Below are positions 31,537 through 52,100 of a stretch of DNA of 64,000 nucleotides, one piece after another (within the stretch, counting starts at the first letter, position 1; the number at the start of each line of letters is the position of its first letter). Under the pieces are notes generated by a model. That model saw nothing but the letters and a program-made list of their open reading frames with translations, ran no database searches and had not been told where the DNA came from. The translations under genes and the position numbers were made by a program. The DNA lies in the NCBI RefSeq assembly GCF_904830955.1, contig NZ_LR882970.1; one strand, given 5' to 3'. This DNA comes from Planktothrix tepida. GTDB lineage: Bacteria > Cyanobacteriota > Cyanobacteriia > Cyanobacteriales > Microcoleaceae.

Positions 31537-31809
31537 TTACAGTCTGCTGATAACGAAAGATTTGATAACGTTAACTGTTTCAAAATTCTCCAGTAAGAAT
31601 TCTTCTGGATTTAAGGTAATACCAAACTTTTCTTCCAGAAAGCTAGCCAGTCGAAAAATGCCCAGCGAGTCAACCAGTCCTTCTTCGATTATGGACAAAT
31701 CATTTGATAAAACCATATCGGGTCTATCGTACATGAAATTTTGGATAATATGCTCTTTAATTATCTGTTCTATCTGTGCTTCCGTGTACTTGTTTACGGC
31801 GGTCATTAT
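31537..31809 (-). CDS. stand-alone acyl/peptidyl carrier protein
   Basis: 90 aa from ATG 31809 (AAGGAG RBS 8 nt upstream). The phosphopantetheine attachment motif is LVDSLGIFRL. The ORF track begins at an upstream alternative start. Confidence 0.75.
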   Translation of the reverse strand: MMTAVNKYTEAQIEQIIKEHIIQNFMYDRPDMVLSNDLSIIEEGLVDSLGIFRLASFLEEKFGITLNPEEFLLENFETVNVIKSFVISRL

Positions 31810-31825
31810 CAATCTCCTTATTGAA

Positions 31826-33445
31826 CTATTTTGAATTCTCTTGAAGTTCTTCGGTACGCAGTAAGGTTTTGTCAATCTTGCCTGTAGGGGTTTTAGGTAA
31901 CCCAGAACGAAACTCAATTAGCTCCGGTATCATGTATTTAGGTAGACGCTGTGCACAAAAATATTCTACATCGCTCTTTTTGAGATTATTTCCATCCTGT
32001 GTGGCAATTATAGCCTTGATTTTCTTGCCGATTTCCTCATCGGGAATAGCAATTACGGCTGCTTCAACAATTGCAGGATGAGCGTATAGCGTCGTTTCAA
32101 TTTCATCCAGTTCAATTCGGTATCCTCGGCTCTTAATCTGGTTATCGCGACGACCTAAATAAATATAGTTGCCATCAGAATTGAGTTTCACTAAATCCCC
32201 AGTTCGGTAAACTTTTTCTAACCATCCGCAACCTGGTACGGGGAAAGGTGTGAGAGCCTGTTGGGTTTTGTCATGATTTCCCCAGTATCCTTTCATTAAG
32301 GAGGGGCTACGCACGTAAAGTTCCCCAACTTCTCCTGGTTTGGTAATTTCCTTGTGTTCATTAACGGCAAATACCTCTGTGTTGGCACAAGCTTTGCCAA
32401 TGGGCAGAGTTCTTACCTCTTCAGGAGGAATTTCCTTTACCGGATAGTAAGTACAGACATTTGTTTCTGTGGGTCCGTAGAGATTATAGTAGTTGGCTTG
32501 CGGTAGCAACTCCATAAGTTGACGCAGGTATTTAACTGGGAACACTTCCCCCGCAAACAAAATCGTCCGAATATGGGGAAATTGAGCCTGATGCAGGTTG
32601 CCGTAAACAATTAGCTGTCTCAGCACTGAAGGGACAGAATACCAGATGGTAATTTGTTGTTCTTCAATAAACTGAGCGAGGTTTCTGGGAAACACTGAGA
32701 GTTCCGGTGGTACCAGAATGACAGTCGCACCTGCTTTGATAGTGGTGAAGATATCAAAGATGGAAAGATCGAAATGAAGTGGGGCGTGATTGGAAACGCG
32801 ATCGCTCCTTTGTACCTGAAAGCAATCATAAGCCCAGTTGACAAAGGTTAGAGAAGCTCGATGGCTAATCATCACCCCTTTGGGAGTGCCAGTGGAGCCG
32901 GATGTGTAGAGAATGTAGGCAAGATCGTCTTCAATCAAATTGCTGGGTGGTGATGGGTTTGGCGGTGCTTGCAACACCTCTTGCCAAGACACCATCCTGA
33001 CATTTGACAGATTACCCGTGTCCTGTTGTGCTTCATCGTCAGCGAGTACCAGGCACTGGACACCAGAGGTGTTTGGCAGTTGAAGGCTGGCTATCTTTTT
33101 ATGGGTACTCACCAAAGCCTTCATCTGGCAATTGTCAATGATAAAGCCTATCCGCTTCGCAGGAGCTAAGGGGTCTAGGGGAACGTAGACAGATCCAGCT
33201 TTAAGGATACCGAAAATGGCAATGACTGCTTCAATGGATTTGTTCACGTAAATGCCGACGCGATCGCCTCTTGATATCCCGCAACTTATCAAGAGGTGGG
33301 CTAACTGATTAGAAACTTGGTCTAACTCCCGATACGTGATGCTGCTATTTTTATAGATTACAGCTTCCCGGTCTGGATATTGCTTGGCACTAATTTCTAA
33401 AAGCTGTTGCAGTAGATACGGCATGGGTTTTGGGCTGTCTTCCAT
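31826..33445 (-). CDS. stand-alone adenylation enzyme (amino acid-AMP ligase; AnaC/PltF-like)
   Basis: A-domain cores are present: A3 YTSGSTGTPKGV, A5 YGPTE, A7 YRTGDL, A8 GRRDNQIKSRGYRIELDEIE, A10 PKTPTGKIDK. No C or T domain. Start set at ATG 33445 (MEDSPKPMPYLLQQLLE...). Confidence 0.9.
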   Translation of the reverse strand: MEDSPKPMPYLLQQLLEISAKQYPDREAVIYKNSSITYRELDQVSNQLAHLLISCGISRGDRVGIYVNKSIEAVIAIFGILKAGSVYVPLDPLAPAKRIGFIIDNCQMKALVSTHKKIASLQLPNTSGVQCLVLADDEAQQDTGNLSNVRMVSWQEVLQAPPNPSPPSNLIEDDLAYILYTSGSTGTPKGVMISHRASLTFVNWAYDCFQVQRSDRVSNHAPLHFDLSIFDIFTTIKAGATVILVPPELSVFPRNLAQFIEEQQITIWYSVPSVLRQLIVYGNLHQAQFPHIRTILFAGEVFPVKYLRQLMELLPQANYYNLYGPTETNVCTYYPVKEIPPEEVRTLPIGKACANTEVFAVNEHKEITKPGEVGELYVRSPSLMKGYWGNHDKTQQALTPFPVPGCGWLEKVYRTGDLVKLNSDGNYIYLGRRDNQIKSRGYRIELDEIETTLYAHPAIVEAAVIAIPDEEIGKKIKAIIATQDGNNLKKSDVEYFCAQRLPKYMIPELIEFRSGLPKTPTGKIDKTLLRTEELQENSK

Positions 33446-33557
33446 AGAATGTTCAAACGATAATACAGCGAGATGAATTCGTACCAATTCTTCGTAGCGC
33501 GCCGCAGCGTTGTCTCGTAATCTCGCAAATGCTCTCGCGTAAACAAAAAATCACCCT

Positions 33558-34703
33558 CTATAATCCCATAAATTGGGCAATTATTTGGTACTGAATCTCA
33601 GAGGTTCCTGAATAAAGCTTGCTCCCTAACGCATCCCTTAATTCTCGTTCTAGTTCTAACTCAGTTAGATAGCCATAACCACCATGAATCTGAATTGCAT
33701 CAAGGCAGGACTGCACCCAAGATTCACTAATATAAAGTTTTGCCATTGCCGCTTCCATAATCGCCGTTTTTTTATTATTTTTTAACCATCCTACTTTATA
33801 CAGCAGCGCTCTAGCTGTTTCAAGTCGCATCTTCATGTCAACAATTTTGCTGCTAACTAACTGAAATTTTCCAATCGATTGACCAAATTGCTGGCGCTTC
33901 CTAGCATATTGAATGCAGCTTTCTAACAGACGTTCCATAGTCCCGATCGCACTGGCAAGAATGAATCCTCGCTCCCATTCCATACTGTGATTAAAGATAG
34001 CAAGTCCCGAACCCTCTTGACCAAGACGATTTTCACTCGGCACTTCACAATTTTCTAGGAACAGTTCACCTAACTGAGTCGTTCTTAAACCCATTTTGGA
34101 AATTTTACGATTGATCGCGACTCCGGCAAAATCTTTTTCGACGATAAATCCAGTAATTCCCCGTTTTCCTTTTTCGGGAGCGACATTCGCAAATACAATG
34201 TAAAGGTCAGCAACTGGACCATTTGTGACCCAATTCTTAACACCATTTAAGATGTACTTGTCTCCCTGTATTTTGGCAGTAGTCTTAAGATTGTAAATAT
34301 CCGAACCTGCTTCTGGTTCACTTGCCCCATGAGCGCCAATGAATTCACCGCTACAGAGTTTGGGGAGATACTTTTGTTTTTGAGCTTCGGTGCCAAAGGT
34401 TAAAATCGGTATTTCGCCAGCCCATATATGAGCGTTGATGGCAAAGATTAGACCATTGTCTTTACAACCATAACCTAAAGCTTCCAAGGCACAAATCGTT
34501 GTAAGAATATCTGTCCCAGTTCCCCCATAATGTTCAGGAATTGGCAGACCGATCAGACCAAATTTCCCACATTTTTCCCAACTTTCTCGGTTAAATTCTT
34601 CTCGCCAATCTAGGTCAATTAGATTTGATTGCAACTCTTGTTGGGCGAATTTAACAATCTTCTCTCTAAACTGAATTTGTTCCTCTGTCCATGAAAAGTC
34701 CAT
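33558..34703 (-). CDS. acyl-CoA dehydrogenase-family flavoprotein (candidate aminoacyl-S-carrier protein oxidase, AnaB/PltE-like)
   Basis: 381-aa ACAD fold (MDFSWTEEQ...). The catalytic-base region is YSGTSEIQ. It lies directly upstream of the A enzyme and carrier protein. Confidence 0.8.
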   Translation of the reverse strand: MDFSWTEEQIQFREKIVKFAQQELQSNLIDLDWREEFNRESWEKCGKFGLIGLPIPEHYGGTGTDILTTICALEALGYGCKDNGLIFAINAHIWAGEIPILTFGTEAQKQKYLPKLCSGEFIGAHGASEPEAGSDIYNLKTTAKIQGDKYILNGVKNWVTNGPVADLYIVFANVAPEKGKRGITGFIVEKDFAGVAINRKISKMGLRTTQLGELFLENCEVPSENRLGQEGSGLAIFNHSMEWERGFILASAIGTMERLLESCIQYARKRQQFGQSIGKFQLVSSKIVDMKMRLETARALLYKVGWLKNNKKTAIMEAAMAKLYISESWVQSCLDAIQIHGGYGYLTELELERELRDALGSKLYSGTSEIQYQIIAQFMGL

Positions 34704-34713
34704 TTTTCAAAGC

Positions 34714-36495
34714 TCATTGTGGTGATGAATGTATTCTTATATTGGAATCTGGGTGTCGTTGCTCTATTAACAATTTTCCGATTTCTGAAAGACACTGCTT
34801 GACAAGAGCGATGAAATCTTCCGGCTGTAGATGTTTACTCGTTACAGCAAAGGTAATCTTGTTGCGATCGATGACATAGCCGATTCCATAGTCGCGACAT
34901 GGACTGGGGCAGGCTATCTCTACACCCATTTTATTACTTAGGGCAGAAGCGGAGAAGCTTGGGTCTAAGATAACTTCTTCAAAGGTTTTATCTTGAAAAA
35001 TATCGAGAACACTGCTGCCTTTATAGCGAGCTAAGTTATAAAGCGCATAAAGGTGCATGACCACTCCCTGCCCGTTTTTAGTGTTAAACACTCGCCATAA
35101 ATGAGCGTTAACAGCACGTTTTAGAGTCCGATATCGCACTTCGTCTGAAGCTCCCTCAGTAAAGGCTTGAATGAGTTCTACAGATTCGGGTGTAACTACT
35201 AAGGCGTAGTCGTGCCGCCCGTACCGGAAGGTTCTGTTGTGTACAGCTTGCCAAGCGCTAGTAGTAATCTTACCATGCAGGCGAGTGTAAGCAATCTGTA
35301 GCGACAGGAGAAACACAGCATCAGCAATTAAACCATGTTGCTGGATAAAGTCTGACCCAAATTCGTCGAAAATTATTATCCCCATCTGAATTTGTTCGCT
35401 CAGACGCTCTGCATCTGTTAATGCTTGCGCTACTTCTTCTTTGAGTGTCCGATCTAACTTCCAGCACAGTCGCTGTGGTGGTTCGAGTTCGACTGAACTG
35501 GAGGATGTAAGGGATTCTTCAAGGGGTTCAAGCTCCCGGTTGACCTCGCTTATCAACCGTGCTACCGGATAACCATCGACATTACTGTGTTCAATTGTTA
35601 CAGCGAACTGACCCTCAGAGTTAAAAACGAGCCGAATAGGTTTATCGAACCATCGGTTTCGCGCACCATCTCCAGTAAAGGCAGTTCTTGCTAGCCTTTC
35701 CAAATCGGGAGGCGTTATTTCGTCTAAACAGACAACAAATAAGGCGCTATCCAATAGTTCTAGAGAGCAAGCGTTTTCTGCATCTAGGTTCGTGAGGTAG
35801 GAGCGAACTGTTGCCCACTGTTCTCTGGGGAGAGATGTCAGCACTCCCACAGGAAGTTCCCCTGGATGAGTATTTTCCAGAATCCAATCAATTTGCTGTG
35901 CTACAGCTTCCACCGACGGTAACGTATCCCCTGGGAGCAACTTTAAGACGTAAAACGTATCCCGTCGGATGACCACAATATGCTCAGAATTTTTCGCCCT
36001 TTGAAAGCTGTCACATTTGATTCCAGGAATTCGCGCACTGCCAAACAAATTGTCATACTGAGCCATACAAAGGGGAGGTTTGTTTCGTTGAAATACATCG
36101 CGATCTGGCTCTAGTTCCCGATATTTGATTTTCAGGTGGAATTGGAGGGTATTAAAAATTATGATGGCGACAATGCGGGTAAAGGAATATTTCGAGGTTG
36201 TCAAGACGGGCGAAGCCACCCCTGTGCTTCTCATATTTAGTTGTGAAGACCGCATTTCTAAATAGGTTTCCTCTTTAAATTGTTGTAAATAGTTAGTATT
36301 AGTTGAGCGGTCAATCATCTCCAATTGCTTCTGTAGTTCGACTCCACTCCCTTGTTGAAATTCCCTTACGGCGGTCTTAGTTCGCTCTAATTCTGTGTCA
36401 CTCAACAGCGGTGTTACCATCTCGATATAACGAGCGCAGGTGTCTGAGAGTTTGGGCAAAGGTAGTTTTGGAAGAGACTCTTGGAATTGATACAT
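34714..36495 (-). CDS. choline/carnitine O-acyltransferase-family protein
   Basis: The N-terminal LPKLPLPKLSDTCARYIEMV resembles the family signature LP+LPVP.L..T...Y. The catalytic His block is IEHSNVDGY (family motif EHSxxDG). 593 aa. Confidence 0.7.
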   Translation of the reverse strand: MYQFQESLPKLPLPKLSDTCARYIEMVTPLLSDTELERTKTAVREFQQGSGVELQKQLEMIDRSTNTNYLQQFKEETYLEMRSSQLNMRSTGVASPVLTTSKYSFTRIVAIIIFNTLQFHLKIKYRELEPDRDVFQRNKPPLCMAQYDNLFGSARIPGIKCDSFQRAKNSEHIVVIRRDTFYVLKLLPGDTLPSVEAVAQQIDWILENTHPGELPVGVLTSLPREQWATVRSYLTNLDAENACSLELLDSALFVVCLDEITPPDLERLARTAFTGDGARNRWFDKPIRLVFNSEGQFAVTIEHSNVDGYPVARLISEVNRELEPLEESLTSSSSVELEPPQRLCWKLDRTLKEEVAQALTDAERLSEQIQMGIIIFDEFGSDFIQQHGLIADAVFLLSLQIAYTRLHGKITTSAWQAVHNRTFRYGRHDYALVVTPESVELIQAFTEGASDEVRYRTLKRAVNAHLWRVFNTKNGQGVVMHLYALYNLARYKGSSVLDIFQDKTFEEVILDPSFSASALSNKMGVEIACPSPCRDYGIGYVIDRNKITFAVTSKHLQPEDFIALVKQCLSEIGKLLIEQRHPDSNIRIHSSPQ

Positions 36496-36520
36496 CTACT
36501 TACACTTATAGCTAAGATTA

Positions 36521-37492
36521 TCAGAATTGTGACATAGAAATCAAAATTTTTCTCGAACCAAAAAACGGTCTTCGTCCATGACAAACTAACATATTATCTA
36601 TGACTAGAACATCACCCTCCCGCCAAGGAAAAACAACAGTTTGTTTACCAATAGTTTCTCTAATTTCATCTAGCATTGAAACATCAATTGGAGTATTGTC
36701 GCCAAAGCAAGCATAGTGAGGGAGTTCCTCTTCGTTACCGTCAAAATAAAACATCATAGCTTCGTAGATATTTTTAGGAAGAGTAGATGGATGAAATAGA
36801 TCGGCTTGATTAAACCAAACTTGTTCATCTGTACGAGGATGAGTTGCAATAGCAGGACGAATCTGGCTTAATCGCAATCCTCCATCCTTCTTCCACTCAA
36901 AATCCATACCAGCTTTTCTATTATGCTCTTCTACTAGGGACTTATCTGAAGTTTTAAAAGCATCTTGCCATGAAACTCCCATGCCATTACTACTAGGTAA
37001 ATTGCGGATATACTTCACTTGTTTAAGTGTGAACTTTTCCACAATCTTTGGGTTAAGACTTTTGAGGATTTGGCGACTATCAGCAATTGGTGTTTCTCCG
37101 CCCTCTTTAGGCGCAGTAATACAGCAAAAATAGAGTTGGTCTGGCCATTGGCTAGAGTAGGATAACTCATTATGCAAACTAATGGAGTATTCAGCTGGAT
37201 ATTCAGTTGAAGTATAAATACCACTAGCTAGTTGGGTTCGGGGAGAATTTCCATCAACATAATCTATTAAATTACCTGAAATAGATTTAACGAATTTTTC
37301 AAAAGCTAAGATTGTATTGACATCAAAACCTCGAAAAAGAATCGCTCCGTGTTTCAAAATTTTGTTTGATAAAAGTTCACTATTATCTTTGTACCATGAA
37401 AGGAGATAATCAAAATTAGACGATTCGCGTTTTGTGTCAGGTTCTACTAGCAAGGGTAGATTGTGATTCGAGTCGAAAATTCCTATTTTCAT
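36521..37492 (-). CDS. Fe(II)/2-oxoglutarate-dependent dioxygenase, TauD/TfdA, SyrP or gamma-butyrobetaine-hydroxylase-like
   Basis: HxE facial-triad motif in ISLHNELSY. Distal His and Arg in LVCHGRRPFFG. 323 aa. Confidence 0.75.
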   Translation of the reverse strand: MKIGIFDSNHNLPLLVEPDTKRESSNFDYLLSWYKDNSELLSNKILKHGAILFRGFDVNTILAFEKFVKSISGNLIDYVDGNSPRTQLASGIYTSTEYPAEYSISLHNELSYSSQWPDQLYFCCITAPKEGGETPIADSRQILKSLNPKIVEKFTLKQVKYIRNLPSSNGMGVSWQDAFKTSDKSLVEEHNRKAGMDFEWKKDGGLRLSQIRPAIATHPRTDEQVWFNQADLFHPSTLPKNIYEAMMFYFDGNEEELPHYACFGDNTPIDVSMLDEIRETIGKQTVVFPWREGDVLVIDNMLVCHGRRPFFGSRKILISMSQF

Positions 37493-37566
37493 AATGATTG
37501 AGCTTTTTTAGTCAAATGAAAGAGCTTGTTAATTACCTCAAAAATTTCCACTTAACAGACCAATTA

Positions 37567-40500
37567 CTAAGCCAATGGAGCCTGTGTTTGCTTTAGGCAA
37601 GAGAGAAGTTGTGTGGCTAACACCTGTACGTGCGGCTGTTGCATCATGGTGCTATGGTTCCCTGGAACAACATGAATGTCTATAGTAGAAGAAAACTCGT
37701 TCCAGCCCAAAGCAGGTTCTTTTCGCCTTTGTTTCAACTCTTCTGTATCACCCTCAAATACATCAACCTCACTAGAACGGAAAAGAGTAATGGGAGCTTG
37801 TTGCAGCCCCGAAGGCAAATAAGCACGATGAGCTTTCAGGGACGCAATGTATACTTGCACTAGCCCCCGTACTAACCCTATTCCCGCATCAGGGGGTAGC
37901 AAATTGACCCGTATCAACCGTTCTTTGAGATAGTTCAATTGCTCCTCCTGAGATAGGGAAGCAAGAGTTTCTTTAGATACCTCCAACTTGAGGGAGAACA
38001 TATATTCAATATAGCTGGCAAAATCAAAAAGATATGCCACCTCATCTTCATCAGAATAATTCGGCTTATTAGCAACAATTGGCGCAACAACGTCAATAAT
38101 TGCAAGTAGAGCGACCTCATGCCCCTGTTTGAGCAACTGAGTTGCCATCTCAAAGGCAACTACACCTCCAAACGAATGCCCTCCCAGCAGGTACGGACCA
38201 GAGGGCTGAACTGTCTGTATTGCTTCAATATAGTAGGTGGCTATCTCTTCCAACTGTGTAAAAGGCTCTGATTCGCCATCCAGTCCCCGTGCTTGCAGAC
38301 CGTAGAAGGGTTGCTCAGATCCAAGATGACGCGCTAGCTCATATAAGTAAATCACATTTCCCCCAACTCCAGGCACAAAGAAGAAAGGTCGCTTCTCGGT
38401 GCCAGACTGAATTGCTACCAAAGGAGACCAAGGCAAGGAATGAGTTTCGGATCGAAGACAACTAGCTAGCTGTTCGATAGTTGGGCTAGAGAAAAGCGTT
38501 GCTATGGGCAGATTTTTCCCAAAATGCCGCGAAATTTGAGCCATTAAGAGTACAGCTAAAAGAGAATGACCTCCGAAAGTAAAGAAGTTATCCTTCATTC
38601 CAACAGTCGGAAGCTTCAAAACCTCTGACCAAATTTGCTGTAGTTGCTGTTCAACTGTGTCACGGGGAGGGACAAAGCCCATTGAGTTACTTAATTCCGT
38701 ATCTGGTGTCTCCAAGGCGCGACGGTCTACCTTACCATTGGGGGTGAGAGGTAAAGAAGAAAGCATCACAAAGGCTCCCGGCACCATGTAGTCTGGGAGC
38801 TTTTGTTGGAGGAAGTGCCGCAGTTCAATGGTGGCAGGAGGTTCATGGTTGGGAACAACATAAGCTACCAGTCGTTTGTTATCTGGTTGGTCATCCCTTG
38901 CTAAAACTACTGTCTCCCGTAACTCTGGGTGTTGAGCTAGCGCTGCTTCGATTTCTCCGAGTTCAATACGGAAACCGCGAATCTTCACTTGACGATCCAG
39001 CCGACCAAGGAACTCAATGTTACCGTCTGGAAGGTAGCGGGCATTGTCCCCGGTTTTGTAGAGGCGTGTTCCTTCTTCTTGGCTAAAGGGGTTGGGGATG
39101 AATTTTTCTTTTGTCAATTCTGGGCTGTTGAGGTAGCCTCGCGCCAGTCCAAAACCACCAATATGCACTTCCCCAGGTACACCAACAGGGACTGGTTGCA
39201 GATGGCAGTCGAGCAGATAAATTTGTGTGTTGGTGATCGGGCGACCGATAGGGACAATTTTGATTGGCTCATCCTGTTGTGCCGGAATTGGATAAGTGGC
39301 AACAATTCCACAAGTTTCAGTTTGACCAAACATATTGATTAATCGTGCTTTGTGCTGAAAACCAAACGTCCACTGAGTAGGAAGATCGGACAGCAGCGGT
39401 TCGCTCGCCGACACAATTAAACGCAGTTTGTTATCTAACAGTGCTTGTTTCGTAACAGGTTCTAAGCTAGCAAGTGTATGAATGCAGTTACGCCAATAAG
39501 AGGGGACAATATCAATAACTGTCACACTATGTTGTTTAATTGTCGTAAATAGTGATTGTGGGTCTTTTCTCTGTTCAGAAGTTGCAATTTTGACAGTTGC
39601 CCCACTAGCCAGAGGCACGATCAACTGTCTGACAGAAGATGAGAAAGCAATCGATGCGGTGTGCAAATATACATCTTCTGCTGTGATATTTAGCACTTGA
39701 CTCATTGCTTGGGCATAGTGACACAAATTAGCGTGTGTCACCTGTACTCCCTTTGGCTTTCCCGTTGAGCCAGAGGTATAAATGACATAGGCTAAATTAG
39801 CAACTGTTGCTGTTTGGTTTAAATTTTCTTCTGAGTGTTGAGCAATGAGATGCCTATCTGTATCTAAGCAAACAACTTGTGCCGTATGTTCAGGCAGTTC
39901 TGTTATCAAGCACTCCTGAGTCAACAACACCTTTGGTTGTGAATTTTGCAACATGAACGCTAAGCGCTCTTTGGGATAGGATGGGTCTAAAGGCACATAA
40001 GCCCCTCCAGTTTTGAGGATGCCAAGTAGACTCACTACCATCTCTAAGGAGCGATCAACGTAGATGCCCACCAGCACTTCTGGCTCCACACCTAGAGTTT
40101 TCAAGTGATGTGCTATTCTGTTCGCCCGTTGGTTCAAATCTTGGTAGGTCAGTTGCTCCCCTTCAAAAACCACCGCAATAGCATCAGGCGATCGCTCCAC
40201 CTGTTCCTCAAATAACTGGTGGATACACTTATTGAAGGGATACTCTTTTGTGGCGTTGTTCCACTCTACTAATAGCTGGTGTCGCTCTGGCTCTGTGAGC
40301 AATGGCAATTCTGAAACCTTCTGTTGAGGATTAGCAACAATTCCCTCTAGTAAGGTCTGAAAATGTTGAGCCATGCGATTGATCGTACTGGCATCAAACA
40401 AGTCAGTATTGTATTCCCACGTCCCGATTAGTCCAGAGTCGCTGTTGACGAAAGCTACAAACAAATCCAACTTCGCCGTAGCTGTTTCTACCGCTACTGG

Positions 40501-41820
40501 ACTCACCGTTAAGCCTTCCATGTCTATCTGCATCGCTGGGTAAAGCACAAACCTCACTTGGAAATACGGTGTGTAGCTTAAGTTACGCGCTGGCTGCAAT
40601 TGTTCTAATAACTTTTCAAACGGTAGGTCATGATGAGCGTATGCTCCCAAAGCCACGTCCCGGACTCTTGAGAGTAGCTCCTCAAAACTCGGATTACCTG
40701 ATATATCAGTCCGCAGAACCAACGTATTGAGAAACAATCCAATCAATCCCTGAAGCTCACGGCGCTCCCGGCCTGCGTAAGGCGTGCCTACGCAAATATC
40801 GGTCTGCTCTGTATAACGGTAAAGCAATGTGAAGAGCGCCGCCAACAGCGTCATAAACAGAGTAACTCCTTTGCGTTGACTTAAAATCATCAAAGCCTCT
40901 GTTAGTTCTTTTGAGAGTGCTTGTCGGTGACACGCCCCTCGAAACGTTTGAGTTGCTTTTCGCACTCGGTCAGTTGGCAGTTCCAATATTTCTGGCGCAC
41001 TCCTCAGTTGTTGCTTCCAATAAGCAAGTTGAGACTCTAGTATGTCTTCCTGTAACCACTGCCGCTGCCAAACAGCAAAGTCGGCGTACTGAATCGGTAG
41101 CTCTGGTAGCTCTGGTAGCAAGTCATTGCAGTAGGCTGTGTAGAAAGCTGCTAACTCTTTGACCAATACGCCCTCTGAAGGAGCATCCCAGACAATGTGA
41201 TGTATTGTTAGTAACAAGATATGTTCTGTCGGTGTTAGCTTTAGCACAGAAGCTTGAATCAACCCAGAGCTACTGAGGTCAAAGGGTTGCTGGATTTGTG
41301 CCCTGGCTTTTAGCCCCCAAGCAATTTCTCTTTCACTCTCAGGTAGCTCACTCAAATCTATGACTTGCACACTCAAGGTCAAGCCAAGAGCAATAACCTG
41401 AACGGGTTGCCCCTCAACCGTTGTGAAGTTGGTGCGTAAGACCTCGTGGCGTTGAATTATCTTGTTGAGGCTTTTCTCTAAAGCGACAACGTTGAGAGAA
41501 CCATTAAGTCGCAGAGCTAGTGGTACGTTGTAGAAGGGGTTAGTTGGCTCCAACTGGCTCAAGAACCACAGTCCTTCTTGGGCAAAAGACAGAGGCAAGT
41601 TACCAGTTCGCGAAACTCTTAGAAGGGGTAGGTCAGTATCATTGGCGATCGCATTGCTGTTCTGTAGCAACTTTACAAGTTCTGCCTTATGCAATGCCAG
41701 TAAATTACGTACCTCTGGTGTCAGTACCTTCTTTGGTGCCCGCACGCGCAACTGGTCGTCTTCGACCCACAACTTCACACCAGCTAGGGCGAGTTCAGCT
41801 ACAAATTGCTTAAGGTTCAT
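37567..41820 (-). CDS. single-module non-ribosomal peptide synthetase: N-terminal TubC-type docking domain, C, A, T and TE
   Basis: The N-terminus (MNLKQFVAELALAGVKLWVEDDQLRVRAPKKVLTPEVRNLLALHKAELVKLL) matches the TubC-type docking-domain pattern. The C domain has HHIVWDA. The A domain has LAYVIYTSGSTGKPKGV, NMFGQTE, YKTGD and GRLDRQVKIRGFRIELGEIE. The T domain has FFTFGGHSLLAV. The TE has GHSFGGVVAFEMA (GxSxG). Confidence 0.95.
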   Translation of the reverse strand: MNLKQFVAELALAGVKLWVEDDQLRVRAPKKVLTPEVRNLLALHKAELVKLLQNSNAIANDTDLPLLRVSRTGNLPLSFAQEGLWFLSQLEPTNPFYNVPLALRLNGSLNVVALEKSLNKIIQRHEVLRTNFTTVEGQPVQVIALGLTLSVQVIDLSELPESEREIAWGLKARAQIQQPFDLSSSGLIQASVLKLTPTEHILLLTIHHIVWDAPSEGVLVKELAAFYTAYCNDLLPELPELPIQYADFAVWQRQWLQEDILESQLAYWKQQLRSAPEILELPTDRVRKATQTFRGACHRQALSKELTEALMILSQRKGVTLFMTLLAALFTLLYRYTEQTDICVGTPYAGRERRELQGLIGLFLNTLVLRTDISGNPSFEELLSRVRDVALGAYAHHDLPFEKLLEQLQPARNLSYTPYFQVRFVLYPAMQIDMEGLTVSPVAVETATAKLDLFVAFVNSDSGLIGTWEYNTDLFDASTINRMAQHFQTLLEGIVANPQQKVSELPLLTEPERHQLLVEWNNATKEYPFNKCIHQLFEEQVERSPDAIAVVFEGEQLTYQDLNQRANRIAHHLKTLGVEPEVLVGIYVDRSLEMVVSLLGILKTGGAYVPLDPSYPKERLAFMLQNSQPKVLLTQECLITELPEHTAQVVCLDTDRHLIAQHSEENLNQTATVANLAYVIYTSGSTGKPKGVQVTHANLCHYAQAMSQVLNITAEDVYLHTASIAFSSSVRQLIVPLASGATVKIATSEQRKDPQSLFTTIKQHSVTVIDIVPSYWRNCIHTLASLEPVTKQALLDNKLRLIVSASEPLLSDLPTQWTFGFQHKARLINMFGQTETCGIVATYPIPAQQDEPIKIVPIGRPITNTQIYLLDCHLQPVPVGVPGEVHIGGFGLARGYLNSPELTKEKFIPNPFSQEEGTRLYKTGDNARYLPDGNIEFLGRLDRQVKIRGFRIELGEIEAALAQHPELRETVVLARDDQPDNKRLVAYVVPNHEPPATIELRHFLQQKLPDYMVPGAFVMLSSLPLTPNGKVDRRALETPDTELSNSMGFVPPRDTVEQQLQQIWSEVLKLPTVGMKDNFFTFGGHSLLAVLLMAQISRHFGKNLPIATLFSSPTIEQLASCLRSETHSLPWSPLVAIQSGTEKRPFFFVPGVGGNVIYLYELARHLGSEQPFYGLQARGLDGESEPFTQLEEIATYYIEAIQTVQPSGPYLLGGHSFGGVVAFEMATQLLKQGHEVALLAIIDVVAPIVANKPNYSDEDEVAYLFDFASYIEYMFSLKLEVSKETLASLSQEEQLNYLKERLIRVNLLPPDAGIGLVRGLVQVYIASLKAHRAYLPSGLQQAPITLFRSSEVDVFEGDTEELKQRRKEPALGWNEFSSTIDIHVVPGNHSTMMQQPHVQVLATQLLSCLKQTQAPLA

Positions 41821-42070
41821 AGAGCGATTTCCTTCATACTGTCATCGAGTTCAGTGGATGGGGATGCTGACTGGAGCAGAGCCAATGCCCATTGCTCTAG
41901 CATTAGCTCTGCTAGAGAGGAAATGCTCACACCCTCCATAATTTTCATAACAGGCATCACCCCCGACTTGAACCAGGGCTGTTTCAAAGTCGGGGGGAAA
42001 AGAGTAAAGAAATAGCGATCGCTAGCTGATAAAATCAAAAGCGGTCGCTGATTTTTTTGTAAAAATAAAG

Positions 42071-43270
42071 ATGCTAACAATTCTAATAGAAAAACTGAAA
42101 AAAGTCAAGGATTACCGGAAAGCCCAGGGAACAAGGCATCCAATATGGCTAGTATTATTAATAGTCATTTTGGGGCTAATGTCGAGAAATTTAGGGTACA
42201 GAGAACTCGAAAATTTTGCGAAAATCAATCAATACCAACTGAGTCAAGTTTTAAAAATCAAGCTAGAAAAACTGCCATCATACTCAACAATAAGAAGAGT
42301 AATACAAGGAGTAGATTGGTTAAATTTAATTGAGATATTTAATGAATGGGCTACTTGTAATTATCCGCATCAAGAAGAACTAGATTGGTTAGCAGTAGAT
42401 GGAAAAAGCCTGAGAAGCACTCTCAAAGATTTTGGAGATAAATCCCAAAATTTTGTGATGATTGTTGCACTGTTTAGTCAAAGAACAGGATGCGTATTAA
42501 ACCTGAGAAAGATGGAGAACAAAAAAGAATCAGAAATCAGCCAAGCCCAAAAGATAGTAAGGGATTGCCAGTTAAAAAGAAAAGTAATAACCTTTGATGC
42601 GTTGCACTGTAATCAGAAAACTGCTGCCCTAGTTATTGAGAGCGGGAATGATTATATAATGGCTTTAAAGAAAAATCAAAAAAAGTTATATGAGCAAGTT
42701 GAAGCGGTAATAAAAAGTGAAAATCCTGTGAGTGTAGATGTGACTCATGAACACAGCCATGGCAGAAAAGTGACTCGAAAAGTTTCCATTTATCAAGTCA
42801 ATAACAACTTTCACAAAGGCTGGAAACATCTGAAACTTGTGATTCAGATAGAAAGAAGTGGCAACAGAGGAAAAAAACCCTATCAAGAAAAAGTATATTA
42901 TATCAGTAGTGCCGTTAACGAAGCTCAAACCTTAGCTCAAATCATTAAAGGACATTGGGGGATTGAGAATCAATACCATTGGGTAAAAGATGTAATTTTT
43001 CAAGAAGATAAAAGCCGAATTCGTAACTTTCAAGCAGCTAGCAACTTTTCAACTCTTAAAACTCTGGTAATCAATCTTTTCAGAAGTTGGGGTTTTGTAT
43101 CAATAACAGAAGGACAACTTTTTCGCCTCATTCCTAAAAATTGGGGACTCAATTTGACTCCCCAATTTGGGAAAATGAAACAGCCCTGGGAATTTGAAGG
43201 GGGTTCCTGTCCCGATGCCATTATATCGTTTATCTCGTTCTGCCTTAAAACCGGGTATGAACCGATTTGA
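42071..43270 (+). mobile_element. ISAs1-family (IS4/IS5 superfamily, DDE) transposase gene, apparently intact
   Basis: 399 aa. The N-terminal DYRKAQGTRHPIWLVLLIVILGLMSRNLGYRELENFAK is typical of ISAs1/H-repeat transposases. The C-terminal DDE_Tnp_1 region carries the E in HWGIENQYHWVKDV. Terminal IRs were not identified by eye. Confidence 0.75.
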
Positions 43271-43424
43271 TAATCTGATTGAGAAGTTGGTACGTTATCA
43301 TCCCGAACATTGTATGACATTGAACAACCAGTTTATCATTTTGAATAGATTCCAATTTCCCGCGGCTTAAATAAACATTAAAGAGGATTTGTAAAAATAC
43401 ATCAAAATCAGTTTTTAACTTTTC

Positions 43425-43955
43425 TCAATTGTTTATTCTATCTCTCAATTTAAAGTGAAAACGTCCTGCGTAGAATATCGCACTGATTAACACATTAAGG
43501 GTTAGTTTAAGCCAAGCCCCTACTACGCCGAAAGACATAACGCTTGTTAGTAATAATGAAACAGGTATCATTACAAACCAACCGCCTAATAAACTGATAT
43601 TTCGCACATAGAAAGTATCATTTAATCCCACCAAAGCGGCTCGGTAAATCATAAAAATAGCATCGCCAGCTTGGTAAAAAATATGAATACGCAGAATGGT
43701 AGTAGTGGTTGCTATGACTTCAGTGTCGTTACTGAATATTCCGATGACTAACGGCGAAAAAACTAGGGCGAGAATGCTAACTCCTTCCATCATTATAACT
43801 GCCCAGCAGGCGGCAAGGGATGATTCTTCTTTTGCGCCAACTGCGTCGTTACGCGCTATCGCATGGGCGACTTGAACGGTTGTCATACTGGCAGCACCTG
43901 CGCCAAAGATGTAACCAATATCTTTAATTCTCATCCCGATAGTGTGTGCCGCCAT
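43425..43955 (-). pseudogene. C-terminal half of a second MATE efflux transporter, N-terminal half missing
   Basis: 176 aa corresponding to MATE TM8-12. Upstream coding sequence is replaced by an IS5-type remnant. Confidence 0.7.
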
Positions 43956-44036
43956 TGGTACTACACCAAGATGACTAATTGGGGCTTGCTGAAAAAGTAA
44001 CAGAAAAGGAAACGAATGATGAACTAGCGAATGAAG

Positions 44037-44941
44037 TTAGAAGGGTAAATCAGTTTTTTTTTGAGGAAAGAAGTTAACCGATAAGTTATGATAATCAATG
44101 ACTCGAAAAAAGTAATTGACTAAAAAAATTGACACCAAAATCTGCCTAAGAATGGCAGAGAGATTCATGACTAAAAAAGTAATAGCAATTGCCGTTTCGG
44201 AAGTATGAGCTAGTTTATTCATAATCCGATTCAGGCTAAATCTTCTTTTCCCTTGCCCAAATTTGCCCTCAATTGAATTCCGAATCTTTTCATCGTCTAA
44301 CGCCTGCTTCTTAGTAGCTTCACTCAGATTTACTGGGGGTCTCCCTAACGGAGGGCCACTGATTCTAATTCCTCTTTCTTTACACCAAGCTCGGTTGTCT
44401 CTAGTTCGGTAAATTTTATCTACATGGACTGACTCAGGATAATACCCCGTATATTCTTTAAAAGCCTCTATTTGTGCTTTTAATATATTGCAGTTGTTTT
44501 TTAACTGCCTTTCGTCTTTTTTGTCGGGAAGGTCGGCGTTGTTTGGCTATTTCTAGGTAGTCTTTTCTGGCTTTCTTTCTATAAGTTCTAGGTTTCTTCT
44601 CTGATTTATCCTGACGGCTTTTATACAAACTATCAATGATTTTTTCCGTTTGTTCTCTGGCTTGATTTAAAATTTTTAAGTCCGTCGGATCTGTCACTTA
44701 TCCCTAATTTTTCTTTAATGATTAAGGCTCCCAATGCCATTCTAAATCTTTTGGCTGGTGCTCCCATCACAGATGAGAATAATTCTTCATATTCTGCTTC
44801 AAATTCTTCCCAGGGTATCACTTTTGCCATGATGACCCAGCGATTCTCTTCCGACAGCTTTCCCTCAAACGGCAGTTTGAAATCTTCTGCTGGTGTCCTT
44901 GGTTGTTCGTCTTTACGGTACATTTTCCCCGACTCCTGCAA
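44037..44941 (-). mobile_element. IS5-family transposase, fragmented by frameshifts and internally deleted (non-functional)
   Basis: Three consecutive ORF fragments. The InsH-N-like head is MYRKDEQPRTPAEDFKLPFEGKL...IMAKVIPWEEFE...MGAPAKRFRMALGALIIKEKLGISDR. The tail is ...RISGPPLGRP... and (V)EGKFGQGKRRFSLNRIMNKLAHTSETAIAITFLVMNL. Confidence 0.7.
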
Positions 44942-44951
44942 GGTTTTTGGG

Positions 44952-47111
44952 CTATTTTACACCCCTCCCTTGCACCTGATTCATTTTTTCTTGTCTTCTC
45001 CTCCCCTCTGTTCTGGCTTTTCGCCTTTTTTCAGCAAGCCCTAAATAACGACCAACCCCAACATATCGGAAATATTCTAGCTTGCCACCGGAGTGACTGC
45101 GGCGATCGCTCGTATATCGAAAGCCGAGGATATTGCCCACTGGTGACGAAGGGACAATGGCTAAATAGTCTCGTGGTGGGCGATTGACCAGGGATAAGCT
45201 AGTGTCGTGAAAGTCGATCACCTGCGATCGCATTAAAGCACTGAGGTGGTCAAGCACAAAGCTTAACCGATTCGCCAGAACTGTCACCAAGATGGCGAAC
45301 TGTAAATGGCGCGTCGCTTCCTCAAACTGGGTTTTATCGGTCAGAGAAATATTCACAGCCTCTAGCCATCGCTTCAACCAGTCCCCGATTTCCGCTAATG
45401 CAACTTGATCACTTTCACCACTGAGTAAGGTAAACGCCAAATCGGATAGTTCTCCTCCTTTGCGACGATTGAGAGGAGCTTGCAAAAATCTCTCAAGGGT
45501 CTGCATCAGTTGTTTGCGACGCTGACGTTCTTCAACTGGAGGTAAACCCGCTTCAATGCGTTTTTGTCGTTGTTGACTGCGTTCACTGCGAGTCAGTTTA
45601 GGTTGGGTTTGCTGATTATCTGTTTCTAAGGGAGGTTCTAGAATATCTCGAATAATATGGGCAAAGACTGAACGACCTGTAAACGGAGTTGAGCCTAACC
45701 ATTGCACCAGTTTCGGTTGATTGTGAAGTTTAGGCAGAATAATATCAGTGGCAATTTGAGCAAAATCATTCGCTTTCTTGGCATCTGCAATCAGTTTAGC
45801 TGCCAGAGGGCGACGATCAGAATTATAAATTGCATTGGCGAATTTAATTCCTAATTGATTTAATAAGGAATTTCCAGAAGCATCCACTAACACTTCATCA
45901 GGTGCAAACGCTTCATCAAACTGCACTTGGACTCGATCTGCTTCATCAATAAAAAGAAAGTGGCATTCACGGTAAACGGCTTCAGCAAACGTTAGTTTTT
46001 CTTCTAACAATTGGCGGGGAATGGGAGTATGAATCAAACTCGCTGGGGTTAATACCCAAACTAAAGATTGTCCAATGTCTCGTTCTAATTGATGATGAGG
46101 GCATTGGTAATAAAAAGGGCAGGTGCTATATTTATTATTTTCAGTTTCTTCTTCCTCACCTTCATCATCATCACTAGGACTATTCTGATTTATACTGTTC
46201 ACTTTTTGGTAAAGATTATGGCAAGGTTCGGAACCAAATTCCCATTTTTCCTCCGCTTGAACTAATGCTAATAAGGGGCAGATTGGATTAAACCAACGCC
46301 ATGCCGGATGGGTAGCTCCTTGATAAATTTCTTCTCCTTTTGTGGATAGAATAGGTTCATAAACTTTTTCTAATTGTTGAAAGCGATCGCTTCCTAGGAT
46401 AGGAGTTGCTGGAATGCCTAAACCATGGGAAAATAAAGAAGCGAGTCGTACCTGTGCCACCACATCATTCACAATTAAAGCACAGCGATATCCTTGTTTA
46501 GCGAGAGAGTAAATCAGAATTTCAAGCAAGGTCGATTTACCCACATTCAATAAACCGACGATATGGAGCAATTTGTCTAGTTTGAGTTCTTGATTTTGAT
46601 CACAGAAATTATCAGTTGATTCGTTATAAATTCGCCAGTTAATTTCTTTAAGTCGGCTATCATAATTTTCTGGTTCATATCCGCATTCAGCTAATTTAGC
46701 GTCCATTTCCCTGGCTGAACTGAGCAACTCCTCTTTAGTGATGGTTTGAGCAAAATTGTTTTGTTGGCGAATGTGATTAAACGCTACATTTCGCGAGAGA
46801 TCAAGATTAGCAACGGCTTCGGGAATATTGATAGGAACTTCTACGGGTGCATGACCTTTGTTAGAAATTTTTGCATACCAATAGCCCGTAGAGGCAAGTT
46901 TAATTTTTCGTTTGCTATGAGAGGGTGTTGTTGATAAGGTTTCTTTATAAAAAGAATGGCGTTGAGGGTGAATTGTGGTCGGAATTAAGACAGGGCTATC
47001 GTTATCAGGAAAACTGATTGCTCTGTCTGGAGTGGTGGGTTGTGGCAAAACTTTAACGCTGCGACGGCTACAAGAGACCTTGAGGAAAGGTGGCAAGATT
47101 TTGGTTTCCAA
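44952..47111 (-). CDS. large P-loop NTPase of unknown family
   Basis: Walker A is LHIVGLLNVGKSTLLEIL, Walker B is FLFIDEADRVQ, and there is a Cys/His cluster CPFYYQCPHH. The N-terminal about 140 codons of the tracked ORF are low-complexity and overlap plus-strand ExeA-like fragments. A likelier start is near MDAKLAECGYE (about 46700). Confidence 0.5.
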   Translation of the reverse strand: METKILPPFLKVSCSRRSVKVLPQPTTPDRAISFPDNDSPVLIPTTIHPQRHSFYKETLSTTPSHSKRKIKLASTGYWYAKISNKGHAPVEVPINIPEAVANLDLSRNVAFNHIRQQNNFAQTITKEELLSSAREMDAKLAECGYEPENYDSRLKEINWRIYNESTDNFCDQNQELKLDKLLHIVGLLNVGKSTLLEILIYSLAKQGYRCALIVNDVVAQVRLASLFSHGLGIPATPILGSDRFQQLEKVYEPILSTKGEEIYQGATHPAWRWFNPICPLLALVQAEEKWEFGSEPCHNLYQKVNSINQNSPSDDDEGEEEETENNKYSTCPFYYQCPHHQLERDIGQSLVWVLTPASLIHTPIPRQLLEEKLTFAEAVYRECHFLFIDEADRVQVQFDEAFAPDEVLVDASGNSLLNQLGIKFANAIYNSDRRPLAAKLIADAKKANDFAQIATDIILPKLHNQPKLVQWLGSTPFTGRSVFAHIIRDILEPPLETDNQQTQPKLTRSERSQQRQKRIEAGLPPVEERQRRKQLMQTLERFLQAPLNRRKGGELSDLAFTLLSGESDQVALAEIGDWLKRWLEAVNISLTDKTQFEEATRHLQFAILVTVLANRLSFVLDHLSALMRSQVIDFHDTSLSLVNRPPRDYLAIVPSSPVGNILGFRYTSDRRSHSGGKLEYFRYVGVGRYLGLAEKRRKARTEGRRRQEKMNQVQGRGVK

Positions 47112-49165: not shown

Positions 49166-52100
49166 TTAATTAAGGGTAAAAGAATTAGCGGTAATTGAGT
49201 TAGCAGGAACACCGATTAAAGTGGCTAAAAGTTCATTATTGGCTGCGACTTGAATCAAGGTATTTCCGGCTTGAGTTCCACTCCCTTGAAGGATGGTAAG
49301 CTGATTAAAATTATAATTTTGCGTCAATTTTAACAGATCCTTACCTCCAACAAAATCTAGGATAAAATCACCATTTTCACCCGGATTTAACATAAAGATA
49401 TCGGCTCCTTGACCCCCGATGAGGGAATCTGTTCCGACTCCACCATTAAGGGTATCATTGCCTAAATCTCCTGTGACTAAATCATCGCCGTTACTTCCAT
49501 CTACAAAATCGTCGCCTTGACCGCCATGAATCAGATCGTTATCGTCGCCACCGTAAAGGTTATCGTTCCCTGTACCTCCTGACAACAGATCTTCTCCAGT
49601 ATGACCAACTAACAGGTCGTTTCCAACTTCTCCTAATACCGTATCATTGCCTAAATCGCCACTGAGGGTATCGTTTCCTAAACCTCCGAAAATCAGGTCA
49701 TTGTCTTTACCGCCTCCCACCCAGTCTTCATCGGCTCCACCATAAATTAGGTCGTTTCCAAGGAAACCATAAATCACATCTTGACCTAGGTTTCCTGAGA
49801 GGAAATCAACTTCACCATAACCGAGTAGGGTATCTTGACCGACACCGCCACTGAGGGAGTTGGGACGCTCATCTCCTAAGAGCAGGTCATCGGGGGGGTT
49901 ACTGGTGGGAATGGAGGTTAGATTTTTCCGAGCGATAAATTGTTCGATGGGGTCGCTCAGGGATGAGGGATTTGTTGTTTTTGGGGTGGGAGTTGAGGGA
50001 GTTGGAGTTGTAGGATTAACGGAATTGATGAGATTAACAACCTCCTGATTAGAATTGGGGGTAATATTACTGTTATTATTGAGATTGTCTTCGGGGTTAT
50101 CTGTAGGAGGTGTGTTAGGATCTGTTGGGGGTTGGTCAATAACAGAAGTATCGATGGTGGTGGTAGCAATTTGAGTGGTTAACGCTTCTCCAGTATTCTC
50201 AGCCACTACTTCGTCAAAGGATTTTGTACCACTGAAGGCGGCACTTAAATCTTCCGTGACGCTGGTTTGGGCGACTTTTTGGGCTTGGAAGATGCCATCA
50301 GTGGTGGTGGAGGTCAGGATTTGCTGGTTGCTGTCAGCGATAACTTGGGATAATTGAGCCGCATTGTTGGTAATCACCTCTAGGTTAATAGTGTTGCCTG
50401 GGTCTATCTCTGCTAACATATTGGTTATATTGCCAACTGTGTTAGTAATCAGAGTTTGAATCGCTGTGCTATCACTGAGATTAACACTACTACTTTGCAG
50501 GAGTTCGGCTAGATTCCCAGTCACCTGAGCATCTAAGCTATTGCTGCTGATGCCAGCAACGGTTTGCAGGGAGTTACTGATTTGACTAATCAGGGTTTGC
50601 ACTGCCACTTGTGCCGCTAACACCGCTAAACCTTCAGGAGAACCCGCTTGGGCGGCTGCGATGGCATCAAAGGTGGCTAAATTAATGGTGCTGGGGAGTC
50701 CCAAAGCAGTTTTGACTTGGGTTTCGGATGCGTCTGGGGTGAGTCCTGTATCGACGAGGGTAGAAATTAGGGTGGTTAGAGGGGTAACTACCGTAGAATC
50801 GGGAACTGCCCGCAGTGTGCCTGTAAAGGCTTGTCCGGTAATGGCATCGGTGCCACCGACGACCACATATTCCCCTTCATCGAAGTCGAGAGTGCCATTG
50901 CTGTTGAGGTCGAAGTTACCCGCAATCTCCAGGGTGAAATTACCCGCAGCATCTGTGGTTGCACCAGGTTCATCGCTATCTTGGGTGCGGTTGAAGTTGG
51001 TGTCTAGGAAGGCTGTGGCTCCAGAGATGGGGCCATCTAAAGCTTTGGCTTTGATAGTTTTGGAGATAGCTGCGGGGCTGGCGACTTTAATATCGCTACT
51101 GAACACAGCATGAGTGTTAAGGTTAGCTCCTTGAAAGTCTTGAGTTTTGGTGGCTGCATTGGCGGCTAAGTTGTCTGTAAAGGTGGTATCACTGCTAATG
51201 GTGACGGTTGGGGGTGAGGTGGGTAAACCTTGCTTATTAATCTCCTTCTGAGCATCTATCGTTGCTTGGGTGAGGGCAAAAATCGCACCCCCCAGCCCTT
51301 TTCCATCATCGGTGGTGATAAGATTTTCAGTTCCGGTTCCTCCAATGGCTCTGGAATTTGAGAAACTGGAGCCTGTGATGGTGAGGTTGCCTTCCCGGAC
51401 AAAAATCGCTCCTCCCATCCCTGCACCGCCGCTGCCGAAGCCGAGGCCGCCACCGCCGCCGAAGCCGCCGATGCTGCCGCTGCGGCCGAGGCCGCCGCCG
51501 CCGCCGAAGCCGCTCATGCCGCCGAAGCCGCCGCCGCCGCCGAAACCGCCGAAACCGCCGAAACCGCCCCAGCCGCCGCCGCCCCAGCCGCCGCCGCCGC
51601 CCCAGCTGCCCCAGCCGCCGAAACCGCCAAAACCGCCCCAGCCCCCGTTGCCGCCGAAGCCGCCGCCGCCGCCATTGTTAGCTGCTATCTTCTGCAACCC
51701 AATACCACCACCAAACTGCTTATTGCCCCCTTCGCCATTACCACCAATAGCTTGATTCCCCTCAAACTTCACTCCATCAACCTTCACATCCCCTTGATAA
51801 ATAAACAGTGCCCCTCCCATCCCCGCACCACCACCGGAGTCATAACCATCGCCTCCCTTAGCAACTGCGTTTTTCAGCGTCAGGTTCTTAAAACTCACAT
51901 TCCCTGATTTGACAAAGAAAATCGGACGGTCATCTTGAGCCGCTTTACCATTATTATTGTTATCCCCATTGATGGTATGTCCTTGCCCATCAACAGTCAT
52001 ATCGCTATCAACCAAACTCCACATCCGAATCACATCGTCGCCAAAATTCAGACGCACATCGGTATTGAGTTTGATGGTATCGGCTCCGGGCTTCTCGTTA

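Follow-up and report, generated by a model that had tools for sequence, protein, structure and literature searches.

A partnerless TubC-type docking domain and the stump of a polyketide synthase gene beside an ISAs1-family element in Planktothrix tepida

In a 64,000-nt stretch of Planktothrix tepida contig NZ_LR882970.1 (hereafter the window), a gene for a non-ribosomal peptide synthetase (NRPS) begins with a TubC-type docking domain, and the upstream subunit that would dock there has very probably been lost. Directly upstream we found only the stump of a type I polyketide synthase (PKS) gene, the last 48 of about 2200 codons, followed after a 9-nt junction by a degraded insertion sequence (IS) of the ISAs1 family. 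What is new is the recognition that the P. tepida cluster is the truncated remainder of a larger hybrid cluster whose intact form can be named, as it is present in Microcoleus sp. and Anabaena sp. PCC 7108; IS-associated decay of NRPS and PKS clusters in Planktothrix is already documented (Entfellner et al, 2022; PMC9366434). The features at the junction, with the basis of each assignment in brackets, are as follows.

37567–41820, minus strand: NRPS, docking domain followed by condensation (C), adenylation (A), peptidyl carrier protein (PCP) and thioesterase (TE) domains; 1417 aa, reading frame intact (Pfam)
41662–41811, minus strand: TubC-type beta-hairpin docking domain, NRPS residues 4–53 (PF18563)
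41817–42080, minus strand: open frame of 87 codons from TTG, a chimera of IS left end, junction and PKS relic
41817–41963, minus strand: relic of a type I PKS gene, last 48 codons and stop (alignment to the PKS C-termini of loci L001, L021 and L023)
41965–41973, no strand: 9-nt junction, GACTTGAAC on the plus strand (alignment; comparison of IS ends)
41974–43188, plus strand: degraded copy of an ISAs1-family IS (terminal inverted repeats; copies in P. agardhii)
42071–43270, plus strand: transposase open reading frame (ORF), 399 codons (NF033564; Pfam DDE_Tnp_1 and DDE_Tnp_1_assoc)

The docking domain and the relic of its partner

A preliminary description made from the letters of the window had proposed that the NRPS starts with a TubC-type docking domain, and the profile search agreed: PF18563 matched residues 4–53 with an E-value of 3.7e-16 (59.4 bits against a cutoff of 26, profile positions 2–51 of 52). 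The Condensation domain follows directly, from residue 73, and is itself followed by AMP-binding, PP-binding and Thioesterase matches in Pfam. The docking domain is conserved in the NRPS orthologues, and the same placement of PF18563 directly before the C domain characterizes the TubC-type junctions of tubulysin (TubB/TubC), epothilone (EpoA/EpoB) and enacyloxin (review PMC9113145). The protein is CUR34148.1 / WP_072720629.1 in P. tepida PCC 9214. Partner tails of TubC-type domains are shorter than 15 residues, and their last five residues form a strand that is salt-bridged to the beta-hairpin (PMC9113145). Orthologues of the window's cluster conform to this junction type, with a carrier protein and a short acidic tail upstream and the two genes translationally coupled. 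The window differs. No functional carrier protein with an acidic short linear motif stands upstream of its NRPS, because 48 codons of the partner are left and the DSL serine is absent; the carrier protein has been destroyed, the phosphopantetheine serine and everything upstream of it are gone, and a non-functional stump remains.

The stump lies in a small open frame that had been described as an 84-codon ORF (41817–42068) beginning exactly at the ISAs1 element. These coordinates do fall inside a real open frame, but that frame has 87 codons and starts at 42080 with TTG, the codon at 42068 being TTA, which is no start codon; and the ISAs1 element does adjoin it, but the frame runs into the element instead of starting at its edge. 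Codons 1–36 are IS sequence because the IS begins at 41974, codons 37–39 are the unrelated 9-nt junction, and codons 40–87 (41963–41820) are PKS-derived. At its 3′ end the frame reads ...ELDDSMKEIAL and stop, as had been noticed, with the TGA (41819–41817) overlapping the NRPS ATG (41820–41818) as ATGA.

We identified the PKS-derived part by its homology to orthologous PKS C-termini at the same genomic position. A tblastn comparison with the Microcoleus PKS C-terminus gave 84% amino acid identity over 45 aa (E = 3e-21), and the relic is part of a continuous, collinear 7.2-kb block (window 41956–34788) that is 93% identical to the Microcoleus locus at the nucleotide level (BLAST). In a five-way alignment, PKS homology begins at GGGGGT (41964–41959), about 20 codons after the DSL serine and within the acyl carrier protein (ACP). 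The relic thus consists of the C-terminal half of the ACP, 3′ of the lost phosphopantetheine serine, and an acidic docking tail ending ...STELDDSMKEIAL; neither the attachment serine nor any upstream catalytic domain is left. The 87-codon frame had no Pfam match, PP-binding included, and neither public annotation lists it as a gene. We are confident that it is not a gene but what is left, at the 3′ end, of a type I PKS gene formerly located directly upstream of the NRPS, in line with the earlier suggestion of a truncated megasynthase.

A G-to-A change at 41834 (coding strand), found in P. tepida only, turns the otherwise invariant tail MEEIAL into MKEIAL with a reversal of charge. It falls within the five tail residues that contact the docking domain (contact residues as given in PMC9113145). 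The same substitution turns GGAGG, 12–16 nt upstream of the NRPS ATG, into GAAGG.

The intact counterparts came from a scan for NRPS homologues, with one genome per species, which yielded 13 loci; the closest was in Microcoleus sp. (L001). There, a 2203-aa type I PKS (KS-AT-DH-cMT-KR-ACP) lies directly upstream of the NRPS, ends in ...LGLDSLMAIELRNRLNNEMGVNLPVMKIMEGVSISSLAEVMLEQWALTQIQSASPSTELDDTMEEIAL and overlaps the NRPS as ATGA, as in the window. The PKSs of Microcoleus and Anabaena sp. PCC 7108 (L021) measure 2203–2245 aa, end in ...MEEIAL with the same overlap and are preceded by a C-A-T (condensation–adenylation–thiolation) subunit. Both loci have the gene order C-A-T, PKS, NRPS, TauD, acyltransferase. 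A metagenome contig (L023) has the C-A-T/PKS/NRPS core and TauD, but its NRPS is C-A-T-C. To our knowledge, no product of the intact Anabaena sp. PCC 7108 / Microcoleus cluster has been described.

An upstream PKS with an ACP and an acidic tail was present at all loci whose NRPS carries TubC_N: L001, L021, L023, Nostoc (L005), L007, Microseira and relatives (L011–13) and a second Planktothrix cluster in P. pseudagardhii (L016). Tail types among them include the pattern ...E(D/E)MEEI(A/T)L and the sequences ...EDMEEITL, ...EDTEDFTL and ...EEEEEVIRL, and the PKS and NRPS genes overlap by 4 nt at every one of these loci except L007. Three NRPS homologues (L003, L004 and L006) have no upstream synthetase, and none of the three has TubC_N. 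Among the loci examined, a docking domain without a partner occurred only in the window and in its sister genome, P. pseudagardhii. Both checks proposed with the preliminary description, a comparison with related genomes and a tblastn search of the remnant against synthetase C-termini, therefore came out in favor of a lost upstream synthetase. Its suggestion of a missing loading or earlier module holds in that the upstream modules are gone; what is missing is not simply a loading module but a KS-AT-DH-cMT-KR-ACP PKS plus a C-A-T subunit.

The window NRPS is 92% identical to its Microcoleus counterpart over the full length and also 92% identical to that of Anabaena sp. PCC 7108, and the NRPS, TauD and acyltransferase proteins together range from 86 to 92% identity in the same gene order, with the PKS–NRPS junction sequence also alike. 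Planktothrix differs in having neither the C-A-T nor the PKS gene and in having a dehydrogenase/A/PCP cassette downstream. We compared synonymous divergence (dS) of these three genes using L001 10001–17072, L021 16735–23901 and window 34714–41820. Between Microcoleus (Oscillatoriales) and Anabaena sp. PCC 7108 (Nostocales) dS was about 0.03–0.04, and to Planktothrix it was 0.12–0.24 (figures for the cluster, 0.04 and 0.15). On this measure, the cluster family shows recent horizontal movement among cyanobacterial orders, because dS is only 0.04–0.15.

The same arrangement of IS, relic and NRPS is present on the P. pseudagardhii No713 chromosome, with 99.7% nucleotide identity. No Planktothrix protein was more than 68% identical to the Microcoleus PKS in a search of about 5.8 billion called proteins, not of raw genome DNA. 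The 68% match is P0009 in P. pseudagardhii and P0142 in P. tepida; it forms the PKS portion of another hybrid cluster, which is complete and has a TubC_N-bearing NRPS of its own. Upstream of the IS, the window contains no megasynthase; we found there a MatE fragment, transposase debris and genes for an NTPase, a GNAT protein, a sulfotransferase and RTX-type giant proteins. Because neither an orthologous PKS among called Planktothrix proteins nor a megasynthase upstream in the window was found, the C-A-T and PKS genes appear to be absent from Planktothrix and not relocated.

The breakpoint and the ISAs1-family element

The IS is bounded by perfect terminal inverted repeats of 13–14 nt, CAGGGCTGTTTCA, at 41974–41986 and 43176–43188; this sequence occurs nowhere else in the window (0.05 occurrences expected by chance). 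Three full-length copies in P. agardhii (L017–L019) have the same ends and different flanks. Compared with these, the window copy has lost 231 bp near its 3′ end (corresponding to L017 2549–2779) and is not a full-length element. Its transposase matched NCBIfam NF033564 (ISAs1) with 259.7 bits (cutoff 70) over profile positions 1–314 of 314; public annotation gives it a later start and 363 aa. At the right boundary of the IS (43186–43192), P. tepida has two extra G relative to P. pseudagardhii, which remove a junction TGA. Because of this extra GG, the transposase ORF extends 82 nt beyond the IS end, to 399 codons, whereas in P. pseudagardhii it stops at the junction TGA after 372. The ISAs1 group of this element is represented by a single fragment per lineage-3 Planktothrix strain (Entfellner et al, 2022; PMC9366434).

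PKS homology ends 9 nt from the CAGGG end of the IS, and the 9-nt junction is homologous to neither the PKS nor the IS. Around the window copy, a clean target-site duplication of 8–10 bp was not found, the flanks being GACTTGAAC and GGAATTTGAA. In the wider flanks, CCCCCGACTTGAAC and GGAATTTGAAGGGGG, a degenerate 7-nt pair (ACTTGAA/ATTTGAA) lies between C5 and G5 runs; the junction with the C5 run at its left and the G5 run past the IS resembles a split GC palindrome. The P. agardhii copies are centered in GC-rich palindromes with 8–10-bp duplications such as CCGTGCACGG, and these palindromic duplications point to a hairpin-targeting insertion preference. In P. agardhii No758 (L017–L019) the site reads CCCCCCC-AAA-CCCCCC-GTGCAC-GGGGGG-CTA-GGGGGGG, with the IS in either orientation and its ends near 1405 and 2832.

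According to the preliminary description, the upstream partner of the NRPS had been replaced by the IS. The element does mark the breakpoint and may be the cause of the loss, but a causal role was not borne out, given the missing clean duplication and the 9-nt spacer. A simple insertion of the IS into an intact gene was rejected, because in-silico excision extends the frame by only about 38 open codons without a start or recognizable coding content. Promoter-like matches near the junction numbered 6, against 4.9 expected from shuffled sequence; since they are no commoner than in shuffled sequence, we claim no outward-reading IS promoter. To the right of the IS, 43189–45000 and the MatE fragment were compared with every locus and matched only the same genome and P. 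pseudagardhii, so that the original upstream neighbor is beyond reconstruction.

Possible histories of the truncated cluster

We favor the following account, which as a whole is very likely to be correct. In the intact system, the C-A-T subunit and the KS-AT-DH-cMT-KR-ACP PKS would build an intermediate on the ACP of the PKS; the acidic tail after this ACP (...ELDDxMEEIAL) would bind the beta-hairpin docking domain of the C-A-PCP-TE NRPS, which would then add the last amino acid and release the product. In the lineage of P. tepida and P. pseudagardhii, everything upstream of mid-ACP would have been lost, at least 9.4 kb comprising the C-A-T gene and 98% of the PKS, with the breakpoint 9 nt from the degraded ISAs1 end and with the remains of a MatE gene and of a second transposase beyond. 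The loss would have left the NRPS docking domain orphaned, with no cognate carrier protein, and the operon without its upstream promoter region, so that the original hybrid product could no longer be made.

The original pathway is likely inactive, judging from the loss of the donor modules and of the promoter-proximal part of the operon; the chance-level promoter matches at the junction and the MKEIAL change count in the same direction. We infer that the truncation was made by mobile-element activity, either a deletion next to the IS or a recombination event that accompanied or followed horizontal acquisition. The locus is an example of the ordinary decay of a horizontally acquired gene cluster. 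In the same genus, remnants of mcy, apn and mic record IS-associated inactivation or deletion of peptide-synthesis clusters (Entfellner et al, 2022; PMC9366434), and the likeness extends to patchy, mobile-element-rich NRPS/PKS clusters that leave remnants and to the catalogued ISAs1 group. The window's cluster was not analyzed in that study, and its remnant differs in that it is a docking tail and thereby reveals an orphan docking domain.

Several observations weigh against this account. The NRPS does not evolve neutrally (dN/dS of 0.29 between the window and the intact orthologues), a value from a longer branch that spans periods both earlier and later than the truncation. Reading frames and catalytic motifs are intact in the NRPS and in every gene downstream. 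The two Planktothrix genomes have diverged since the truncation by 8 synonymous and 13 non-synonymous substitutions over six genes, too few for decay to be demonstrable. The search for the missing PKS covered called proteins and not whole-genome raw DNA. Finally, the IS has no clean 8–10-bp duplication (ACTTGAA versus ATTTGAA) and sits between C5 and G5 runs like the target palindromes of P. agardhii, and it may have arrived after the truncation.

This last point leads to the alternative that the IS is a bystander: the cluster would already have been truncated, by horizontal transfer or illegitimate recombination in which a block of the Microcoleus/Anabaena type became joined to other DNA, and the ISAs1 element would later have entered a GC palindrome at the junction. 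We regard this as a real possibility, though not as the favored one. The split C5...G5 palindrome with its degenerate 7-nt repeat is what such an insertion would resemble, given that the same IS sits in the center of GC-rich palindromes in either orientation in P. agardhii, and the 9 PKS-unrelated nucleotides between relic and IS fit as well. The cluster is also evidently mobile by its dS values, and the conserved block likewise ends in a recombination joint at its opposite edge (34788), where it passes into a block of the type found on metagenome contig L025. Yet the putative duplication is imperfect, with two copies of unequal length, and a duplication would also be missing after an IS-adjacent deletion. 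As the copy is old and degraded, either history fits, and the DNA to its right matches nothing able to date the events.

A different reading is that the assembly line was rewired and is not dead. The docking-C-A-PCP-TE protein would be fed either by the ACP tail of P0142, the second hybrid PKS of the genome (PHL1-type cluster), or by pyrrole-2-carboxyl-S-PCP from the adjacent cassette (31537–34703, below) and would make a new, smaller product. We consider this unlikely. It draws on a 3289-aa NRPS/PKS encoded in both P. tepida and P. pseudagardhii, with a tail, ...SAPPATELSDDMEEITL, that is much like the cognate one that was lost; on the promiscuity of short linear motif/beta-hairpin pairs, for which crosstalk has been demonstrated in vitro (PMC9113145); on the intact A, PCP and dehydrogenase trio and acyltransferase, a unit conserved in L025; and on the fact that every open reading frame is intact. 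Set against it, the 89-aa PCP ends ...VIKSFVISRL without an acidic docking tail, the C domain shares 92% identity with orthologues taking a polyketide-ACP donor, and the PHL1 PKS is already paired with its own translationally coupled docking-domain NRPS. The promoter-proximal part of the operon is gone as well, and promoter-like matches show no excess. Nor does the cluster have an assigned product: an orphan 11.3-kb NRPS cluster of PCC 9214, PNL3, was reported with "no significant similarity in databases" (Pancrace et al, 2017; PMC5259702), and the window's cluster is probably PNL3, an equation made because of its size. More specifically, the P0142 (PHL1-type) tail ...ELSDDMEEITL might recruit the orphan NRPS, with the acyltransferase and the pyrrole cassette decorating a second product; we rate this as slightly more doubtful still. 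If it were true, one PKS would feed two terminating NRPS modules, a naturally branched assembly line born of cluster decay.

It is very improbable that the small ORF is a genuine gene for a short peptide, for instance of 46 aa from the ATG at 41957, acting as a docking-tail decoy or regulator. The frame is open, has in-frame ATGs (M42, M45 and M48) and is translationally coupled to the NRPS, and an excess of free short linear motif peptide inhibits turnover in vitro (PMC9113145). Its openness is nevertheless explained by descent from a real coding frame that became a relic recently; the IS contributes its 5′ third, gene callers and Pfam do not recognize it, and in P. tepida its tail has undergone the charge-reversing change.

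On the favored account, that of a lost PKS and an orphaned docking domain, genome mining should read the P. tepida cluster as a fragment of a larger PKS–NRPS cluster and not as a self-contained one-module NRPS pathway. Product prediction and heterologous expression are better started from the intact versions of Anabaena sp. PCC 7108 or Microcoleus. A partnerless N-terminal docking domain offers a cheap diagnostic of a broken assembly line, and a few dozen leftover tail codons can identify the lost partner. The current understanding of docking domains and insertion sequences is unchanged.

Downstream genes, the region beyond the IS and a second hybrid cluster

The remaining features that bear on the cluster are listed here.

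36521–37492, minus strand: TauD-family Fe/2-oxoglutarate dioxygenase, in the block conserved with Microcoleus and Anabaena
34714–36495, minus strand: enzyme of the choline/carnitine O-acyltransferase family; the stretch homologous to L001 and L021 reaches only to 34788, within the 3′ end of this gene
31537–34703, minus strand: putative complete stand-alone pyrrole-2-carboxyl-PCP cassette (dehydrogenase, A domain and PCP)
33558–34703, minus strand: PigA/RedW-like prolyl-PCP dehydrogenase (PigA 447 bits, RedW 401 bits)
31826–33487, minus strand: PltF-like stand-alone A domain (PltF, PDB 6o6e, E = 4e-105)
31537–31806, minus strand: 89-aa PCP (PP-binding match)
43425–43955, minus strand: fragment of a MatE transporter gene, C-terminal 176 aa only (Pfam PF01554)
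44037–44301, minus strand: debris of a second, unrelated transposase (DDE_Tnp_1_2), 74% identical in nucleotides to a transposase fragment in L001

The putative pyrrole cassette resembles the PltF/PltL/PltE, PigI/PigG/PigA and RedM/RedO/RedW cassettes in combining a PigA/RedW-like dehydrogenase, a PltF-like A domain and an 89-aa PCP. Among stand-alone enzymes, PltF (6o6e) was the best match of the A domain. The window's cassette differs from these known cassettes in its sub-cutoff scores, the dehydrogenase remaining below the NCBIfam equivalog cutoffs of 500 bits for PigA and 650 bits for RedW, and in being linked to a carnitine-acyltransferase-like enzyme and not to a PKS ketosynthase. It is absent from L001 and L021. 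On metagenome contig L025 the cassette stands beside a MatE gene and an acyltransferase of the kind seen in the window, with a halogenase and a methyltransferase added, which suggests that the block could serve (halo)pyrrole ester decoration. A derivation of the Microcoleus and Anabaena downstream genes from an L025-type cassette was considered and rejected: the methyltransferase of L001 and the AMP-binding fragment of L021 are not homologous to the genes of L025 or the window.

Beyond the IS, the segment from the MatE fragment to the GNAT gene (43956–47111) differs between both P. tepida assemblies and from P. pseudagardhii (comparison with L014 and L015). In the window it holds the transposase debris as well as an ORF of 719 aa that weakly matches STAND NTPases, and it is a variable spot rich in mobile elements. 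Two large ORFs farther on (49166–57907 and 58172–63721, minus strand) were considered as the missing megasynthases and ruled out as RTX / FG-GAP / cadherin-type repeat proteins. They encode giant proteins of 2913 aa and at least 1849 aa with DUF4347, FG-GAP, cadherin-like and RTX nonapeptide repeats; their tandem units of about 295 bp are 84–90% identical, and the region is collapsed in the draft assembly of the same strain (L014).

The second hybrid cluster (L016; P. pseudagardhii chromosome, 2.51–2.54 Mb, with an orthologue in P. tepida) is complete, is a paralogue of the lost part and probably corresponds to the orphan cluster "PHL1" of Pancrace et al (2017). Its order is aminotransferase, DHDPS, PhyH, C-A-T-KS-AT-DH-cMT-KR-ACP, TubC_N-C-A-T-C, and then prephenate dehydratase-, cupin- and SDR-like genes; these 3′ genes recall those that make the aeruginosin Choi moiety.

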